DNA from: a virus
Lineage: Duplodnaviria; Caudoviricetes
DNA length: 28,929 nucleotides
Strand: one strand, 5' to 3'
Virus record (IMG/VR): IMGVR_UViG_3300025398_000067
Span: 1 to 28,929 of that record
Within the stretch, counting starts at the first letter, position 1. Each line of letters starts with the position of its first letter. A program made the translations under genes and the position numbers. The notes beneath the pieces were generated by a model that did not search any database, was not told the origin of the DNA, and saw nothing but the letters and a program-made list of their open reading frames with translations. Of the stretch, positions 7,682-28,371 are shown piece after piece.

Positions 7682-8131
7682 TTACCAGTAGTAGTGCTTT
7701 TGCCAGAATGCTTTGGCAGCGCAAGCGCCGTCGGAACCATAGTGGCGTGAAATGTAGGCGATTGCTGCGACAACCTGAGCCATCGGATCGGCAGAATGCT
7801 TGAGGCCGATGTTGGCATAAGTTGAAGCCAAGAGCTGACCGATACCGCGAGCCGAAGAAGTTGGGTTCTTGGCATAAGGGTCGGTATGGCTTTCCTTCTC
7901 GAATATCCAGAGCAAGCAACTGGCTTGGCGCTTGGTCATCAATTCATTGACGAACTTGATGACGACGGCCTTGTCTGTGGTCACAGTTGATGGCTTGATG
8001 GTGACTGTATGGACGACGATTGGAGTGTCAATGATTTTCTGCTCGGATTGGTAGGTCTTGACGCAACCGACGAGCAAGCCAGCCGAAAGGATGGCGCTAG
8101 TGAACGCGATGAAGATTCTTTTCTGACTCAT
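7682..8131 (-). CDS. Lytic transglycosylase (SLT/Rpf-like), predicted lipoprotein
   Basis: KES catalytic Glu, NPTSSARGIGQ, YISRHYGS. Basic-hydrophobic N-terminus ending in lipobox LVG-C. Confidence 0.85.
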   Translation of the reverse strand: MSQKRIFIAFTSAILSAGLLVGCVKTYQSEQKIIDTPIVVHTVTIKPSTVTTDKAVVIKFVNELMTKRQASCLLWIFEKESHTDPYAKNPTSSARGIGQLLASTYANIGLKHSADPMAQVVAAIAYISRHYGSDGACAAKAFWQKHYYW

Positions 8132-8526
8132 AGTGTGATGCCTTTCTTCTTGGCACGAAGGATGATGCGATCTACCGAATCAACTTGAATGCCAAGTTGG
8201 TCGGCAATTTCTTCCCTGGTCATGCCAGTCTTGAGATAGCCTTGAATTTCCCTGAATCGAACGCTTCCTTCTTCCTTCCTGTTTGTCATCATGTGCTTGC
8301 GTTGGAAAGGAGTTGTTCCTCCCCAATAGCCTTCGGTTTCATTGTTCTTGATTGCAAATTGCAAGCAATCAATCTTGTGAATGCAACTGTCGCAAATTGC
8401 AGCAAGTGTCTGCTCTCGCTCGCTCATAACCAAGCGAGATTCCGGGAAGAAGAAGTCTGGGTCAATCTCTGGGGAGTGACACTTGGCTTTTGAGAATCTA
8501 GGAATGGAAAGAGATGTGAGGTTCAC
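8128..8526 (-). CDS. whiB: WhiB-family Fe-S transcription factor with extra C-terminal HTH
   Basis: C-(DPDFFFP)-CxxC-x5-C, GYWGG turn, then MTREEIADQLGIQVDSVDR HTH. Confidence 0.92.
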   Translation of the reverse strand: MNLTSLSIPRFSKAKCHSPEIDPDFFFPESRLVMSEREQTLAAICDSCIHKIDCLQFAIKNNETEGYWGGTTPFQRKHMMTNRKEEGSVRFREIQGYLKTGMTREEIADQLGIQVDSVDRIILRAKKKGITL

Positions 8527-9583: not shown

Positions 9584-10450
9584 CTACAAGCCAGCAAAGG
9601 CGCGTTCTATGCCTTCTCTGAGGCTGATTTGGGGTTTGTAGAAGGTCTCCATATAGATTGGGTCGCCCACACGGTAGAAGACCCCTACAGGCTCGGATTC
9701 GAGGTGTTCAATCTTTGGCTCATAGCCAGCGACCTCGGCAACCAAGCGAGCCAAGTCATTGAAGGAGGTCGGGATTCCTGTGCAGAGATTGGCGACTTCG
9801 ATTCCTGCCTCACAACCTGCCAGCGCCCCATTGACCACATCATCGATGTGGATGAAGTCGCGAATCTGATTTCCATCTCCCCAAATCTGGAAAGGGTCAG
9901 CCTTGCGCTTGCCTCGGTCGATGAAGGATGGGAATGGATAATCAAGTGCTTGGTCTGATCCATAGCCCGAGAATGGTCGGAAGATGTGAACCTCGATGCC
10001 AGCCTTGCGAGCAAATCCTGCCAGCATCTCACCCGTCAGCTTCGACCAGCCGTAAGTGAAATCAGGATTCGAGATGCAATCTAGATTGATGTCATCTTCC
10101 TGCAAGTGAAAGCATTCTTCTTTGGTCTGCAATTTGATGGGATAGGCAGCAGAGGATGAGAAGTAAGTGATGCACCCCGGCTTGGTTCGCATTGCCCACG
10201 AGAAGAGAGCTGCATCGATTTCCAAATCTACGGCGAGCGCCAGAGGTTCGCCTTCAATCATCTTGCGACCTCCGACAACTGCTGCAAGGTGAATGACCTT
10301 GTCAAAGTGTTCATTGTTGGTGCGGAAGAAGTCTCTGGCATCTGTGCCATTCAAGATGTCGATGCCATGCAGTTCGTGACCTTGCGCTTTCAGCTTGTTC
10401 CAGAAGTGTCTGCCAACGAAGCCTTCGTTGCCTGTGATGAGAATTTTCAC
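9584..10450 (-). CDS. NAD-dependent NDP-sugar epimerase/dehydratase (extended SDR)
   Basis: TGNEGFVG Rossmann motif, HLAA, FSSSAAY, YGWSK catalytic YxxxK, RDFIHIDD. Confidence 0.93.
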   Translation of the reverse strand: MKILITGNEGFVGRHFWNKLKAQGHELHGIDILNGTDARDFFRTNNEHFDKVIHLAAVVGGRKMIEGEPLALAVDLEIDAALFSWAMRTKPGCITYFSSSAAYPIKLQTKEECFHLQEDDINLDCISNPDFTYGWSKLTGEMLAGFARKAGIEVHIFRPFSGYGSDQALDYPFPSFIDRGKRKADPFQIWGDGNQIRDFIHIDDVVNGALAGCEAGIEVANLCTGIPTSFNDLARLVAEVAGYEPKIEHLESEPVGVFYRVGDPIYMETFYKPQISLREGIERAFAGL

Positions 10451-11118
10451 TCGCCCCTCAATTCTGTAAGGAGTTGAATATATGCTGGACTTGCAAGATA
10501 GGCATTCATCGCCTCAAAATCGGCTGAATAGACCTCTTGCGCGTTCACCGCAAGGTAACCCTCATCCCACTCGGCCTTGCCAGCGACCGGGTGCAGATGC
10601 TCCACAATCACCTCTGGCATATAGCGAAGAGCGCCAAGGTCTTGCCCGAGCTTCATCCAGAAGTTGTCGAGGTAGAGGTGAATCATTCCTTGCGGAACCA
10701 TTCCCCCAAGTGCCTTGACAATGTCACCTGTCATGGCGATTGCCGTTGGCAAGTTCTCGCCTTGGAATAAGTCATTGCCATAGACCAAGCCTGTGCCGAG
10801 TTCATCGAGAGCGTTCAAGAAGTGAACATCCCAATTCATCGTTCGTGGGCGGTGGTCATCGCCAATGAATGCGAAGTGGCGGTATTTGTCTTTCATCAAG
10901 TTGGCGGTGAAGTTCAATGGCTTTGCCATTCCCTTGCCATCCTTCTTGACGATGAAGATGTCTGCCCCGGTGTCGAGGTAGGCATCAAGAGTTGGATCGT
11001 CATCATCTACAACAACGAGCAAATCAGATTCGGTCTTGGTCTCATCGAATGACTTGAGCAATTCCTTGATGGAGTCGGGTCTTCCCCGAGATGGCACGAT
11101 TACGACGAGATTTCTCAT
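10447..11118 (-). CDS. Glycosyltransferase, GT-A fold (GT2-like)
   Basis: VIVPSRGRP start, VVVDDDD, FIGDDH metal-binding motif, C-terminal EHLHP. Confidence 0.85.
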   Translation of the reverse strand: MRNLVVIVPSRGRPDSIKELLKSFDETKTESDLLVVVDDDDPTLDAYLDTGADIFIVKKDGKGMAKPLNFTANLMKDKYRHFAFIGDDHRPRTMNWDVHFLNALDELGTGLVYGNDLFQGENLPTAIAMTGDIVKALGGMVPQGMIHLYLDNFWMKLGQDLGALRYMPEVIVEHLHPVAGKAEWDEGYLAVNAQEVYSADFEAMNAYLASPAYIQLLTELRGE

Positions 11119-22554: not shown

Positions 22555-22596
22555 GCAGGAAGGTTGAAAGTCAGGGGGAACTCTCAACCTTCCTGC
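22555..22596. terminator. Long hairpin at the end of the capsid-linked glycosyltransferase gene
   Basis: GCAGGAAGGTTGA (22555-22567) / TCAACCTTCCTGC (22584-22596) perfect 13-bp arms. Confidence 0.55.
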
Positions 22597-23300
22597 TTTT
22601 GAGATTGTTGGATTGCGAACGACCGCATTGGGTGATGGTGTCGTTCATCGAGCCAGAACTGTTTGTGGTGCGGAAGAATTGCGCCAGTGTGAGCGTAGAT
22701 TGGGAAGCCCATTGATTTGATGCGCTTGGAAAATAACAAATCCTCGCCGAAATAAGTGCCATCGATTGCGCCTTCAACGAACCATGCCCAATCCTTGCCT
22801 TGGTTTGGCGTGGCTTGCTTTTGCATTTCAAGGAGAACGCTGCGGTGAATCAAGAGACATCCAGTTCCTACCGCATCGACTTCAATCAATGAATCTTCTG
22901 GATAAGCATCAATCGCCTGAAGTCCCTTTTCCGAATCCATTGAATAGATTGTTGGAACTGGGCGAAGGCCGTCATTGTCATCGAAGAATGCAGCAAAGAC
23001 TAGACCTGAGACAATCGGGCGGTCTTTGTCGTGGGCTGAATCAATCAGCTTGTGCCAAGTGGAAAGAGATAATCGTTCATCGGAGTCAATCATCAAGAGC
23101 CAGTCGGCATCTGTTGTCTCCAAGAATGTTTTGACAACGACATTTCTCGACCGAGTTGTCAGGCCGACATTGCCGACTTGCACCATATGATCGAAGTGAC
23201 CATTCTTCTCGCGAGCGACATGAATCAAGTCCATCGCAAGGAGGGCATCAATCGTGCCGTTGTTCACCATGCCGATGCAGACTTTGTGTGAAGATTTCAT
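22584..23300 (-). CDS. Glycosyltransferase, GT-A fold, in the head module
   Basis: RSRN, WLLMIDSD (DxD), EVDAVGTGCLLIHRSV, GEDLLFS, H-K C-terminal motif. Confidence 0.85.
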   Translation of the reverse strand: MKSSHKVCIGMVNNGTIDALLAMDLIHVAREKNGHFDHMVQVGNVGLTTRSRNVVVKTFLETTDADWLLMIDSDERLSLSTWHKLIDSAHDKDRPIVSGLVFAAFFDDNDGLRPVPTIYSMDSEKGLQAIDAYPEDSLIEVDAVGTGCLLIHRSVLLEMQKQATPNQGKDWAWFVEGAIDGTYFGEDLLFSKRIKSMGFPIYAHTGAILPHHKQFWLDERHHHPMRSFAIQQSQKQEG

Positions 23301-23525: not shown

Positions 23526-24875
23526 TTAGTAGCCAGAAGGTGCAACAGTTCCTGTTCCAGAAATTGTTGAGACCGACTTGTTGAAGCGGTGTGCGAGAGC
23601 AGCGTATCCATAGACCTGGAAGCGAACTGTGAGGTTGCTTGAGAGGACATCTGGGAGAACGCGTGTCTTCACGCCTGACTCGAAGAGGTAAGAATCTGAG
23701 AACTTACCGACGAGGATTGGTGAATAGTTGGTGGTTGCGCCGTAGGTCTTTGGAAGTGTTGCATCCAAGAACACAGGAACGCCCTGAATTGTTCCAACTA
23801 GACCAGCAGGTGCGCCTGGATTTGTAACTGTTCCAGCAGCGTTGAATGCCTGTGATGCGCCTGTTACTGGCACAACGAGTGGGCGGTTGCTTCCATCAAC
23901 TTGGCTGGCGAACCAGTACCACATTGAAGGATGCATGACGATGGCTTCTGCTTGCTTGTAACGATTTGTTACAACCTTAGAGATTGCCTGAGCAATTGCC
24001 TTCGCGCCATTGACTGCTGTTGGTGTTGATTCAGTCCATGTTGTTGGGATTCCGTTGGTGGTATCTGCGCCGAGGGTGATGAGACCCTTGAGAGAGCCAG
24101 ATGTTCCATCGCCTGAACCGACAACTGCTGTGTTGAGTTGCAATGCATAGTCAGCCATGAGATCACCGAAGACGAGACGATCGAGACCGCCAGCAAGAGG
24201 AGACTGCTCCACAAGCTGGATTGATACATTCTCATAGCCAGAGATTGTACGAACAGGCGCTGTGACTGTTGATGAGACCATGTCGCGAGTTGTTGTCGTT
24301 GCATTGTCTGCAGACTGGAATGCAGCAAGTGTACCTGTTGTGATCTGTGGGATGTTGATGCTGTCTGTACCAGCAGGCAGAGCCATGTTGGTGACGAGGT
24401 CAGCGGTTACGCGAGCAGCACGAGCGAACTCTGCGTATTCGTTGATGAGGTAGATTGGAGGAACGAAGTCTCCACCAGCGCCATCGGTGCGGGAAATGTC
24501 GCGAGACTCAACTGCGACTTCCTGCTGGTGGCGATAGAGGCGCTCCCATGAAGAGCGATCGTTGCGAAGCTGTGCGCCGATCATGTCGCGGACGAAAGAA
24601 TTCTTTCCATCCTTGTCATAGGTCATTGCCTCTGCGGTGACCTTTGCGCCACCGAATGTTGCAACGCCAGCCTCTTTGCGAGACTCTGCGATTGCTGCTG
24701 TACGTGCTTCTACCTTTTCGGCAGTTGCGATGCGCTCATCGAGCTTTGCAATTTCATCTTGCGCTGCTGATGCTGCATCCAGAGCTTCTGCGCTGACATC
24801 TTCTGCTGCGAGAGTTGTTTCAACCTCGGCAACAAGACCATCGCGCTGCTCCTTGAGCTTTGATGCTAGAGACAT
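23526..24875 (-). CDS. Major capsid protein, HK97 fold, with N-terminal scaffold (delta) domain
   Basis: Coiled-coil N-terminus, GGDFVPP, VSIQLVEQS, GDGT, IVMHP, GTIQGVPV, ILVGKFS. Confidence 0.95.
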   Translation of the reverse strand: MSLASKLKEQRDGLVAEVETTLAAEDVSAEALDAASAAQDEIAKLDERIATAEKVEARTAAIAESRKEAGVATFGGAKVTAEAMTYDKDGKNSFVRDMIGAQLRNDRSSWERLYRHQQEVAVESRDISRTDGAGGDFVPPIYLINEYAEFARAARVTADLVTNMALPAGTDSINIPQITTGTLAAFQSADNATTTTRDMVSSTVTAPVRTISGYENVSIQLVEQSPLAGGLDRLVFGDLMADYALQLNTAVVGSGDGTSGSLKGLITLGADTTNGIPTTWTESTPTAVNGAKAIAQAISKVVTNRYKQAEAIVMHPSMWYWFASQVDGSNRPLVVPVTGASQAFNAAGTVTNPGAPAGLVGTIQGVPVFLDATLPKTYGATTNYSPILVGKFSDSYLFESGVKTRVLPDVLSSNLTVRFQVYGYAALAHRFNKSVSTISGTGTVAPSGY

Positions 24876-24931: not shown

Positions 24932-27142
24932 TTATGCCTTGCGATTACGCAAGGAATGCTGTTTGACCTTGAGAGCCAACTTCTTCTTTCGGATGTCAAG
25001 GTCTTGTTCTACTGTGGAACGCATTCCAACACTTGTTGAAGAATACGCTGGCAAAGTGACAACCGAGACCTCAAAGAGTCGCTCGATTTGTGTCAATGTG
25101 CGAAGTCCAGCATCGCGAGTCTGTCCATCGGGTGCGACTGTGAATGCGAATGACATCTTGTCCATATCGCCTCGACGAAGTGCCGAGGAAAGTTCCTGAG
25201 CCTTTGGATTTGCAGGGTCAAGTTCTGCCTCAATGTAGAGACCTGTCTTGTCTTGACGAAGTTGCAAGGTTCCTGACTGGCTTGAAGCAAGTGGGATTCC
25301 TTCCATGTCGTGATTGACAAGGAGGAAGACTGGATCGCCAGAAGATAGGGCGCGAGTGAAAGCACCGGGAGCGATGACTTCACGGAAATTCAAGCCATCT
25401 GCTTCCTTGTTGAAGGTTGCAGCGTAGCCAGCAATCCGAAGCGATCCATCGGTTGTATCAACCGCACGAACCTCGGCACTCATTGTGATGCGTTCTGCTG
25501 TTGCCATTGCCTTGCGCTGTTCCATCATTTCGACATCCTCTGCTCTTGGGGCTGGAAGGGCTTTGATAACTGTCAAGATGTCTGGGCGGTGAACCGACAC
25601 GACATCGGTTGGAACCCATCCATTCCCCTGCTCCTTGTAGATACGGACTGCGAATGCTGGCTGGTCTGGTGTTGTCTCTAGGACATAGCCTTCGGATGAC
25701 TTTGCCTGACCCTTGGTGACTACTTTCTCAACCTTGCCCTTGGCGCGACCATTGCTGGTGTTCCAAGAGACGAAAGTTCCTTCTCCGATACGAGCTGCGG
25801 AAGCGCGACCCTCGAATGGAGCCTTGATGGAGTCATCGTTGAAAGCCTTTGCCATCTTTGCATAGTAGGCAGCAACTTTGGTCTTGATTGCATCCTGCTG
25901 ATCGCTTGGGATTTTTACTCCACCGCGAGCGCCGTTCAAGATTCCTGCAACTGCGAAGATTGCTTTTGGAACTGCCTTCAATTCGCCATCGATGATGTCT
26001 GCGAATTGCAACTTGTATGAGCCGAGAAGTTCCTTGTTGGATTCATCGACATAGAAGAATGCTTTGGCGTACTTTGACCAGTCGATTGAATCTCCACCAG
26101 CCCAAGCCTGAACGCGCTTATCGGCTGCTGCTGCATCCCAAGTTGTGTCGCGGTCTGCGAAAGCGAGGTCATCGGAACCAATGACGGCGCGAATTTCTTC
26201 ATCGGTCATCGCCGAATAGGAAATCATCATTGGCATGATGGCTGCATCGAAGTCATCTGGGACATCATCTGCATCGACACCCTGGTCATCGAGGGCATCT
26301 GGTGAAGGTTGGGTGACTTCCTGACCGAGAGATGCGGTCAATTGCCACTTCCAGAACTGATGCTGGTCAATACGACCTGCGAGGAAGTTGGCAACTCCCT
26401 GCTGATTGTAAGCACTAGCGCAATCGAAAGCATCTGACAATTCATCGAGAATAATGTCGTTCGCTGCGAGAAGGTCATTGGCGAGCGCAATTGGGTCTTG
26501 CAAAGTTGTTGAAGCATCTTCGATTGAGCGAAGTGCTAAGAATGAGCCGAGTGTGAATGGTGCAAGAGAGCCGAGCTTGCGAAGGTTCTCCGCAATTGGA
26601 TCGATTGACTCATAAACATCTTCGTAAATCTTCAGGAATAACTTGTGGTATTCGCTGAAGTCTGCGCCTCGGACATTCCAATGAGCGCCGTGAGCGCGGA
26701 AATAGAATGAGACGACATCGGCAAGCAGTTCGGTCAATTCTTCATTCAAGTCTGGAACCTGATTCATGTCTGGCATTTCACTCTCCTTGGATTCCATCAG
26801 GGAAAGCGCCCTTGCGCTTTTCGTGATTTGATTTCTGATTTTTGTTGCCCACTCGAAACCTGGGTCTCCACCCCAAGCCGACCAAGCGACTCTCCCTGCT
26901 GATGGAAAGCCATCTTCCCCTGAATTGAAACCCTCTGCCTTCTTGTCCACTTCGTGCCTCTTGAAGAATGAAAACATTCTCAAGATTGTTTCTGCACTTA
27001 CTGGGTGTCCAGCAGCCAAGTCGCTTGCTCTTTTTTTGCCCACAGGTGTGAAGCCAGAGCCAGCATCACCATCAGCAATCCAACCCAAAGCCATTTTCGC
27101 TTCATCTTGGACTCCTTTGGGAACGCGATATGTTTCAGCCAT
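24932..27142 (-). CDS. Multidomain HK97-type prohead protease: N-terminal domain + Dps/ferritin-like + helical domain + Tudor-like (DUF2945-like) + S78 protease
   Basis: Protease motifs GYAATFN, EVIAPGAF, NHD, KMSFAF and EVSVVTLPAY in aa ~560-708. Dps signature HWNVRG..F..YH..F...Y......D.IAE in aa ~130-272. Lies between portal and capsid genes. Confidence 0.92.
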   Translation of the reverse strand: MAETYRVPKGVQDEAKMALGWIADGDAGSGFTPVGKKRASDLAAGHPVSAETILRMFSFFKRHEVDKKAEGFNSGEDGFPSAGRVAWSAWGGDPGFEWATKIRNQITKSARALSLMESKESEMPDMNQVPDLNEELTELLADVVSFYFRAHGAHWNVRGADFSEYHKLFLKIYEDVYESIDPIAENLRKLGSLAPFTLGSFLALRSIEDASTTLQDPIALANDLLAANDIILDELSDAFDCASAYNQQGVANFLAGRIDQHQFWKWQLTASLGQEVTQPSPDALDDQGVDADDVPDDFDAAIMPMMISYSAMTDEEIRAVIGSDDLAFADRDTTWDAAAADKRVQAWAGGDSIDWSKYAKAFFYVDESNKELLGSYKLQFADIIDGELKAVPKAIFAVAGILNGARGGVKIPSDQQDAIKTKVAAYYAKMAKAFNDDSIKAPFEGRASAARIGEGTFVSWNTSNGRAKGKVEKVVTKGQAKSSEGYVLETTPDQPAFAVRIYKEQGNGWVPTDVVSVHRPDILTVIKALPAPRAEDVEMMEQRKAMATAERITMSAEVRAVDTTDGSLRIAGYAATFNKEADGLNFREVIAPGAFTRALSSGDPVFLLVNHDMEGIPLASSQSGTLQLRQDKTGLYIEAELDPANPKAQELSSALRRGDMDKMSFAFTVAPDGQTRDAGLRTLTQIERLFEVSVVTLPAYSSTSVGMRSTVEQDLDIRKKKLALKVKQHSLRNRKA

Positions 27143-28371
27143 TACTCAAGAACTCCCATCACAGGTGCGGAAGGGTCGGTATCTTCTCCGAGTGAAGGAT
27201 TCTCTCCGCCAGCAGTTACATTGCCAGCAAGAGCCTGATTGAACTTATCTCCGCCCTCGTAAGGTTCCAATCCTTCAATCTGACGAACTTCATTTGGAGT
27301 GCGAGCGCCCATCGAAACATTTATCATGTTCACGCGAGCGCGAGTGATTGCATCTGTACGAAGTAGGGTTGAAGTATCGAATGCGACATCATCTTCAGGG
27401 TCAAGAATGTTTGAGATTGCAATTTCAATTCGACGAAGCCAAGGGGCAATCGTATGAGTGAGGAAATTGAGGGATGCTTGTTCTACATTCTGATAGGTCT
27501 GATTATCGCCAGAGGCCAGGAGTAGGTGCGACGGAATGCGGAAGATGCGAGCGATGTCGCGAATCAACTGCTCGCGAGACTTGATCATCTCTGCGTCGGC
27601 TGCTGAAGTTGTGATTGGCTTGAAGGTCAGGCCATCAGAGAGAACTGCTGGCTTGCGGTGACGGCGATGGGTTGCCTCCCATGTCGCCTGAATGACGCGA
27701 GCCTGTTCCAAATTCAGCTTTTGCGGAGTCTCAAGAACGCCAGAAGGTGTTCCTCCCTCGCCGTAGAACTGGGCAAGGTGGCGATCCATAGCGATGGAAA
27801 GGCCGATGAGATTGCGAGCCTGATTGAGTGGGGAGATACCCACCAAAGATTGAGGCGGTGTGAACCAGCGAAGGTGAAGAATATCCTCACGGTTCATCTC
27901 GTTGCCGAGGTGCAAATAACGGCGACCGGTCATGTCACCTGTTGGAAGCACCTGCATTTGATAAGGGTGCAAAGGAACAAGACCAATCATGTTGCCCAAG
28001 CGATCGCGGTCGATTTTGACATAAGCATTTCCATGCAAAGCCATCGAAGCGACAATCTGGTGAATCAATTCGTAAGTGTTTGATTCTGGGTCAGGGTCGG
28101 CAAGTACATCAGGCAAAGGTCGCATGACTCGCTTGCCATCATTGCCAATGGTGTAGCAGCGAAGTGGCATGGAAGCAACAGAGTCAGCAAGAAGTGAGAC
28201 AGCGCCGAGAACGGATGAGACACCGAGAGCAGTCCATTCATCAATTCGCTCACCAGCAGCCGAGGTCATAGATGTTTGACCATAAAGCTGACTCAATGGG
28301 GAAACATAGTTATTGAATTGAGGGTATCGGCCTACTGTGAAGGATTGGATGCCACGCGAGAAGATGCTCAT
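27142..28371 (-). CDS. Portal protein, HK97 family
   Basis: LHGNAYV, ILHLR, GISPL, IARIFRIP, NVEQ, TPNEVRQIEGL. Confidence 0.96.
   Translation of the reverse strand: MSIFSRGIQSFTVGRYPQFNNYVSPLSQLYGQTSMTSAAGERIDEWTALGVSSVLGAVSLLADSVASMPLRCYTIGNDGKRVMRPLPDVLADPDPESNTYELIHQIVASMALHGNAYVKIDRDRLGNMIGLVPLHPYQMQVLPTGDMTGRRYLHLGNEMNREDILHLRWFTPPQSLVGISPLNQARNLIGLSIAMDRHLAQFYGEGGTPSGVLETPQKLNLEQARVIQATWEATHRRHRKPAVLSDGLTFKPITTSAADAEMIKSREQLIRDIARIFRIPSHLLLASGDNQTYQNVEQASLNFLTHTIAPWLRRIEIAISNILDPEDDVAFDTSTLLRTDAITRARVNMINVSMGARTPNEVRQIEGLEPYEGGDKFNQALAGNVTAGGENPSLGEDTDPSAPVMGVLE

Follow-up and report, generated by a model that had tools for sequence, protein, structure and literature searches.

The stretch of DNA analysed here (the window, 28,929 nucleotides of the IMG/VR virus record IMGVR_UViG_3300025398_000067; Duplodnaviria, Caudoviricetes) comprises most of the genome of a small tailed phage, with the terminase gene truncated at the window end. 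The gene order, all on the minus strand, is terminase, portal, an open reading frame (ORF) that joins a Dps mini-ferritin domain to a prohead protease, HK97-type capsid, adaptor, tail tube, tape measure, lysins, WhiB and primase-helicase. In this study, we report on the ORF between the portal and capsid genes, which encodes a head polyprotein of 736 amino acids (aa), and on the role that its Dps domain may have in the phage head. The annotation of the locus is provided in Table 1. All 24 listed sequencing runs containing the stretch were freshwater or freshwater-sediment metagenomes, and 10 of them were flagged as possible sources.

The Dps domain and its companion modules

An earlier note on this DNA, made from the sequence alone, had read a complete Dps domain in the protease ORF at 26327-26776 of the minus strand (M123-L272), and both Pfam and Foldseek agreed with this reading. 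The Pfam family Ferritin (PF00210) matched aa 134-273 above its cut-off (E 1.9e-12, 47.7 bits, cut-off 24.5), and the 48 PDB sequence matches of the domain were all to Dps-family chains or chimeras built on one, the best solved sequence relative being Pseudomonas aeruginosa Dps (8ff9, E 4e-15). The AlphaFold model of this part had helices at aa 132-156, 162-189, 198-204, 217-244 and 248-271, that is, a four-helix bundle with a short BC helix, and Foldseek aligned it to Listeria Dps (6hv1) with a target-normalised template modelling (TM) score of 0.92 and a root mean square deviation of 1.3 Å. The ferroxidase ligands named in the note (H154, H166, D181 and E185) are present, as is Leu at residue 170. 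The four ligands were found in all 77 rows of the clade and, without exception, in the 152 domains that represent the window and the 150 nearest clusters at 50% identity, 151 of which also have W155.

When two copies of the domain were modelled together, the score was 0.57 and that of the best control 0.00, the mark for a dimer being reached by 20 of 30 solved pairs and by 1 of 23 single chains. The runs agreed in at least 97% of the contacts, with a predicted local distance difference test (pLDDT) of at least 91. In the modelled dimer, D181 contacts H154 and E185 contacts W155 of the partner copy, which is the known Dps arrangement. The passing score is probably owed to the likeness to solved Dps proteins, and a twofold dimer with an inter-subunit iron site is predicted.

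The Dps piece that would be released has a predicted mass of ~23 kDa and an isoelectric point (pI) of 4.05 (39 D/E vs. 11 K/R), and the domain with its 15-residue flanks was net negative in 150 of 150 relatives. It scored 34.5 bits against the NCBIfam Dps equivalog (cut-off 114) and remained below the NCBIfam Dps cut-offs. DNA coating through a basic tail was discarded given the pI of about 4, the negative charge in all 150 relatives and the lack of a basic terminal tail. Since the domain is acidic in all relatives, iron and peroxide handling is favoured over DNA binding. The protection of DNA envisaged in the earlier note survives in one part: iron detoxification would fit the invariant ligands and the predicted inter-subunit site, whereas protection by DNA binding is contradicted by the charge.

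The protease part matched Peptidase_S78 (PF04586) at aa 556-708 (E 4e-38, 131.5 bits) and TIGR01543 of NCBIfam with a score of 112 (cut-off 59); it had no PDB sequence match. H611 was kept in 52 of 52 rows and S664 in 51, and we take them to be the catalytic His and Ser of the S78 protease. The AlphaFold model, built on a 52-row alignment, showed five separate domains (predicted TM score 0.30) joined by low-confidence linkers at 111-129, 294-318, 445-450, 534-549 and 696-709. The reading of the ORF in the earlier note was thus right for Dps and S78 and incomplete elsewhere, as N1, M3, the Hva1 Tudor module and the internal starts had been missed. N1 and M3 were both modelled as folded with good confidence; the N1 model gave no PDB fold match at E≤0.001, and N1 and M3 returned only unnamed clusters in the ESM Atlas. 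Of the 150 clusters, 19 have N1 together with Dps, and in locus L213 N1 is a separate neighbouring gene. Pfam, PHROGs and NCBIfam revealed no conflict-type effector domain in the 736-aa protein. The basic C-terminal helix is a candidate capsid-targeting tail, a role taken from work on HK97, in which Duda, Oh and Hendrix reportedly saw in 2013 that the C-terminal part of gp4 carries N-terminal fusions into proheads.

Table 1. Features of the locus and their positions in the window.
Feature	Position	Strand	Remarks
Head polyprotein N1-Dps-M3-Tudor-S78	24932..27142	-	736 aa; own ATG overlaps the portal stop codon
HK97-type portal	27142..28371	-	Pfam, PHROGs
HK97-type major capsid protein	23526..24875	-	Pfam, PHROGs; N-terminal delta-like region of ~125 aa; E-S-R-D junction at 24498-24509
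WhiB	8128..8526	-	Pfam; marker of actinobacterial host
N1 module	26810..27142	-	aa 1-111; helical, pI 9; phrog_2859 (match aa 7-105); ends in conserved S-A-R-A, candidate cut site
Internal start 1 (predicted)	26774..26788	-	Shine-Dalgarno-like AAGGAG six bases before ATG of M123; predicted Dps-first product of 614 aa
Dps mini-ferritin domain	26324..26764	-	aa 127-273; H154 (26681-26683), W155, H166 (26645-26647), L170, D181 (26600-26602), E185 (26588-26590)
Acidic low-confidence linker	26189..26323	-	aa 274-318; ends I-R-A (relatives mostly R-S), candidate cut site after Dps
M3 module	25808..26161	-	aa ~328-445; folded, no family match; optional in relatives
Hva1 Tudor-like module	25646..25780	-	Pfam match aa 455-499, fold extends to ~526; optional in relatives
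Internal start 2 (predicted)	25526..25540	-	GAGGA seven bases before ATG of M539; predicted plain protease of ~198 aa
S78 HK97-type prohead protease	25019..25477	-	aa 556-708; H611 and S664 conserved
Basic C-terminal helix	24935..25018	-	aa 709-736; pI 10.6; common to all nested products

Maintenance of the fusion and its recurrence with head proteins

Dps and S78 were in one frame in 71 of the 80 viral loci kept (137 found), and the other 9 ended at a contig edge. The metagenome loci (80 kept of 84 found) comprised 65 fused, 8 cut and 7 stand-alone cases. Together, the viral, metagenome and protease-side searches gave 153 complete fused ORFs, corresponding to 94 distinct proteins including that of the window. 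Contigs bridging Dps to the protease start were obtained from runs X13 (25494-27300) and X16 (25336-26867), neither flagged as a possible source. An assembly chimera, which the earlier note had counted among the outcomes that would undo its reading, is ruled out by the distinct complete proteins, the same-frame loci and the bridging contigs. Among 397 proteins of 404-1288 aa that matched the Dps domain, S78 was present in 119 of the 120 listed. With regard to cellular contamination, the species-genome scan yielded, among 44 pattern matches, one close locus (L223, 71%, on a 4.7-kb contig) and five archaeal ones at 33-35%. Sequences of this kind are already public, given that UniProt holds long viral entries automatically named Dps (A0A6J5N5R9, 679 aa; A0A6J5RFH1, 622 aa; A0A6J7WVS4, 498 aa).

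In the 77 rows, the median ratio of nonsynonymous to synonymous substitutions (dN/dS) was 0.084 for Dps (1406 pairs), 0.156 for the protease (1379 pairs) and 0.275 for the linker, which points to stronger purifying selection on Dps than on the protease. A degenerate Dps domain was rejected in view of this selection and of the intact ligands. In the relatives, M3 and Tudor are variably present and N1 is sometimes reduced to a short form, while Dps and S78 persist; locus L216 keeps the same Dps-S78 layout though its portal is 29% and its protease 33% identical. In the protease-side search, Dps was found in 39 of the 46 close loci with a complete 5' end, and the domain, judged from these sequences, is maintained but optional in the protease polyprotein. 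Five of the seven loci without Dps (L109:3185-4567, L118-L120 and L125) have, at the place of Dps in the protease polyprotein, a different module that is acidic and looks helical. Some further variation was seen at related loci. Two short contigs have a frame break, in Dps (L208:944-1383) or in N1 (L182:436-768), by assembly error or decay; L214:3441-4624 has two extra genes between the portal and the Dps-bearing protease; and in L178:6623-8185, L188:6216-7799 and L189:2565-4148 the capsid match is split by ~225-280 bases, which suggests an insertion in the capsid gene.

The partners of the domain were surveyed in the 150 nearest clusters at 50% identity (42-95% identical to the query; 4023 matches overall), 105 of which were longer than 250 aa. 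Pfam was run on 149 clusters, with the precomputed domains of P0051 added, and PHROGs on 72 of the long ones. Pfam revealed 21 proteins with Dps before S78, 11 with S78 before Dps (one weak), two XkdF proteases, one Mu gpI and two MuF proteins. PHROGs added nine members of the portal/head-protease families phrog_859/18402, five other head proteases and seven weak or indirect head labels. Firm fusions to a head protease or MuF thus amounted to 51 of the 150 clusters, or 58 counting the weak labels, and no tail, lysis or replication family was a partner among the best five matches shown per protein. The head-protein carriers were scattered across the Dps tree, and a single Dps-before-S78 clade was rejected by the approximately unbiased test (p 0.0027, 22 vs. 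37 rows), which was applied to 59 head-labelled rows with a short alignment and a quick tree and was chosen after the scatter had been seen. Whatever the tree, several fusion events are needed to explain the two opposite domain orders and the MuF cases. In addition, one protein of 777 aa (P0122) has two Dps domains in tandem and is in effect a covalently joined dimer, and HAD phosphatase, AAA_33 kinase-like or zeta-toxin-like domains lie beside Dps in P0151, P0170, P0244, P0263, P0172, P0159 and P0219.

Predicted nested starts and candidate cut sites

Two internal start codons are predicted in the ORF, M123 before Dps and M539 before the protease. In mean pairing energy, the position before M123 ranked 2 of 712, with its neighbours at ranks 1 and 3. 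An ATG was found within 15 codons before Dps in 51 of 52 rows (<88% identity), and 39 of these 51 ATGs had a pairing energy ≤ -7 kcal/mol, as against 39 of 765 other in-frame ATGs, although the rows are related and the counts are not independent trials. Glu120 was encoded by GAG in 93% of the rows (29) and Glu535, which precedes M539, in 97% (37), while the gene-wide proportion was 30%. They are the two most GAG-biased of the 44 Glu columns, and this bias is synonymous evidence for ribosome-binding sites. Most of the 30 plain proteases of cultured phages listed align from aa 537-552. The indication of a start with a ribosome-binding site is strong at M123 and moderate at M539. Products of 736, 614 and ~198 aa would result, each ending in protease and basic tail, so that the single fusion protein implied by the earlier note is probably too simple and three products are likely.

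Regarding the cut sites, the capsid junction read E-[TSL]-R-D in 51 of 51 capsid proteins, and every linker of the polyprotein retains R-[S/A] despite its variable sequence. Of 52 rows, 48 had A, D or S behind the last Arg before Dps and 39 behind the first Arg after Dps. Across distant proteins, the flanks of Dps differed with the carrier: R[SAD] was seen 48 times (30 expected) in Dps-S78 proteins, K[SA] 22 times (12 expected) in S78-Dps proteins and [LIV][TVIS]A[ASGD] 23 times (1.8 expected) in the phrog_859 group. Each motif was enriched only in its own group, with no off-diagonal enrichment in the three-group comparison. These candidate motifs, matching the protease type of the carrier, would be a stronger sign of cutting than the retention of R-[S/A].

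Possible role of the Dps domain in the phage head

The account towards which we lean, with a little more belief than doubt, is that the protease brings Dps into the prohead, where Dps is released by cutting and remains as a sink for iron and peroxide to the benefit of the packaged DNA. Its starting point was observed directly, namely a single frame between the portal and capsid genes with the Dps fold, its ligands intact and under purifying selection. From the conservation of M1, M123 and M539, the gene would yield three products (the polyprotein, a Dps-first form and the protease by itself), and the proportion of cargo to protease would be set in this way. By analogy with HK97, the basic tail would dock on the delta domains of the capsid protein and the cargo forms would be enclosed during assembly. 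The motifs suggest that the protease then acts on R-[S/A/D], cleaving behind the Arg both at the capsid junction and within its own linkers, and thereby leaves the acidic Dps fragment of ~23 kDa. This fragment is predicted to form the canonical dimer with the iron site between subunits and probably a 12-mer, too large to exit the shell. Fe(II) would be oxidised with H2O2 inside the head, with less hydroxyl-radical damage during assembly and in sunlit water, and Dps would not act by coating the DNA. Loading into the prohead, for which the earlier note had cast the protease as carrier, appears well supported by the recurrent fusion to several head proteins, in both orders, and by the carrier-matched flank motifs. 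Each T4 head packages 20-200 fused foreign proteins, a packaged nuclease becomes active when Ca is supplied from outside, and a second start codon is present in gp21 (PMC9026906; this and the other articles given by PMC number are cited from excerpts). The packaging results in T4 indicate that fused enzymes can be packaged, stay active and be reached by outside ions.

It must be noted that a number of observations weigh against this account. The domain is absent from 7 of the 46 close protease loci (5 of 41 distinct proteins) and is therefore dispensable, and the fusion was absent among 50,697 cultured-phage records, where only 10 records had weak partial Dps matches and none of the 752 with protease-region matches covered 80% of the protein. 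In the survey, 45 clusters were of 250 aa or shorter and 47 of the 105 long proteins had no head label. As to processing, the support for the M539 start is limited, with energies ≤ -7 in 16 of 40 rows and ≤ -6 in 22. R[SA] dipeptides occur inside the domains as well as in the linkers, 20-33% of the Arg within folded domains precede S or A, and Dps itself has R-A (149-150) and R-S (205-206). With so loose a motif, Dps could be broken down as the HK97 protease is. The flank motifs were chosen after the flanks had been viewed, and in related rows. Finally, the accessory acidic position four residues after the second His is Leu here. An acidic residue at this place is common in Dps and not universal. 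The position is L, Q, N or M in the 77 clade rows, with Gly in 61 and Glu in 31 of 152 domains of the wider clade, and the Leu is no private loss given this variation.

The stand-alone relatives, which are abundant (4272 matches of 74-424 aa among 8000 candidates) and mostly on large viral contigs (108 loci), cut both ways. In the eight loci whose gene neighbourhoods were inspected, Dps was found between replication and baseplate genes in L245, L260 and L265 and outside any structural module in L222, which adds to the objections, and in a head context in L307 (directly after the portal) and L213 (in the head module, beside the N1 gene). In L229 and L239 it was upstream of the terminase, in the midst of genes for small basic proteins. 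Proteins of this type (phrog_4689, 17747, 14910 and 7595) adjoin the stand-alone Dps in L229:5239-6426, L239:4920-6426, L245:5992-6735 and L260:5902-6916, and are possibly a pool of internal head proteins; members of phrog_7595 also weakly match a minor head protein family.

A rival explanation is that Dps acts in the infected cell and not in the mature particle, the fusion serving for strong late expression, with iron and peroxide buffered while progeny DNA is made and packaged and any prohead copies degraded with the protease. Phage ferritins have been published as support of the host under oxidative stress (PMC6802176, PMC8008677), many stand-alone relatives lie outside head modules, Dps has internal R-A and R-S sites, and a start at M123 would yield a Dps-first product. 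We nevertheless regard this explanation as rather unlikely. Any late gene could provide late expression, yet the labelled partners are head proteins in 51-58 of the 105 long relatives, and tail or lysis partners were never among the matches shown. Besides, the M123 product would still end in protease and tail, and some stand-alone copies belong to the head module, as in L307 and L213.

Packaging of Dps would also be compatible with action after ejection, in the manner of T4 internal proteins or MuF-fused effectors, free iron or peroxide being lowered in the new cell. The MuF fusions P0150 and P0239, the kinase- or phosphatase-like and zeta-toxin-like domains of related polyproteins, the concept of polyvalent proteins (PMC5512222) and the ejection of packaged GFP and IPI by T4 (PMC9026906) are in line with it. 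It is unlikely all the same, because the iron site in the predicted model needs at least a dimer, the oligomer must come apart to pass a portal of ~30 Å (PMC9026906), and the cell would gain little from what could be at most a few dozen monomers. It is quite improbable that Dps is mainly structural, with oligomers that cluster the proteases into a core nucleating or sizing the prohead and iron binding that only stabilises the oligomer. All 152 domains, at 42-95% identity, keep the four iron ligands unchanged, hundreds of cultured phages manage with a plain protease, and the same Dps clade also occurs alone; these points have to be set against the predicted dimer interface, the acidic helical module that takes the Dps slot in L109, L118-L120 and L125, and the loss of the accessory acidic ligand.

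With respect to known systems, the phage domain shares with cellular Dps (P. aeruginosa PA0962, 8ff9; Listeria innocua Dps, 6hv1/1qgh) the four-helix bundle with its short BC helix, the His/His/Asp/Glu site between subunits and, as predicted here, the twofold dimer. It differs in being only ~25-28% identical, part of a head polyprotein, with Leu at the accessory position and no basic tail; compared with the DNA-binding Dps of the E. coli type, it lacks the basic terminal tail and falls below the equivalog cut-off. The HK97 gp4-type protease (S78, TIGR01543) has in common with the ORF its place between the portal and a delta-bearing capsid gene, the His and Ser, and the C-terminal helix, with cleavage presumed here. 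The ORF has 538 extra N-terminal residues, four folded modules and predicted nested starts. Polyvalent proteins and the effector fusions of MuF and portal proteins (PMC5512222) are likewise late proteins of several domains that end in an assemblin-like peptidase and for which packaging and processing are predicted. Their cargo consists of conflict enzymes (metallopeptidase, ART, RNase and the like), whereas here it is a redox and iron enzyme that may stay in the head. The internal proteins and gp21 of T4 (PMC9026906) are also targeted to the prohead, cut by its protease and retained, and the T4 protease gene has a second start codon, but they are basic products of separate genes with N-terminal targeting peptides, in contrast to an acidic cargo covalent with the protease.

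Encapsulins with ferritin-like cargo (PMC9321382, PMC6668986) also combine an HK97-fold shell with an iron enzyme of the ferritin superfamily. In the window, the terminase, portal, tail tube and tape measure belong to a tailed phage, the loader would be the maturation protease, and Dps would share the shell with DNA. Membership of the encapsulins was ruled out by these genes and by the cargo being on the protease, not on the shell protein or a short peptide. The encapsulin-like function proposed in the earlier note can be kept as an analogy only: the fusion may work like encapsulin cargo without being an encapsulin. Stand-alone phage Dps and ferritin genes (phrog_3636; PMC8008677; PMC6802176) belong to the same broad family and occur in gut and freshwater phages, 114 phages with PF00210 being given in Table S5 of PMC6802176. 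In the excerpts they are read as host-support genes, fusion to head proteins is unmentioned, and the word "protease" does not occur in the main text of PMC6802176. Similarly, "ferritin," "dps" and "tudor" have no occurrence in the main text of PMC5512222, nor does ferritin in the excerpts of PMC7824862, on head polyproteins with a C-terminal assemblin-like peptidase. A fusion of Dps to a head protease was not described in the literature searched, which covers subscription journals incompletely and in which the supplements of PMC5512222, PMC7824862 and PMC8008677 could list such architectures. Head cargo borne by a protease is known in kind, and Dps is an unexpected cargo class.

A broader proposal, which we put forward tentatively, is that phage Dps of a large clade travels in the virion as cargo: in environmental phages of many unrelated kinds, an active iron-oxidising cage would be built in the DNA-filled capsid, loaded via whichever head protein is available, tuned by nested starts and released by the phage's own protease. 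If so, much of the "ferritin auxiliary gene" signal of freshwater viromes would reflect armour of the particle and a mobile pool of iron instead of support for the host, and some auxiliary metabolic genes of a class that is often counted would be reassigned to the particle. A natural virion would then possess its own internal antioxidant enzyme, a function that has until now been associated with cellular encapsulins, and the decay of phages in fresh water exposed to sunlight and containing iron could be approached at the molecular level. In this regard, a modular protease with nested starts would be a natural design for loading enzymes into HK97-type shells.

In the rest of the window, promoters and terminators were at chance level in the scan, and the tRNA search found none. 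A glycosyltransferase gene lies directly after the capsid gene (22584-23300, minus strand), and a second one (10447-11118) and a nucleotide-sugar epimerase (9584-10450) are found further on, also on the minus strand. Capsid glycosylation is known in actinophages, and it is a possible function of these genes. The WhiB gene indicates an actinobacterial host, a use of this marker also found in PMC6802176.

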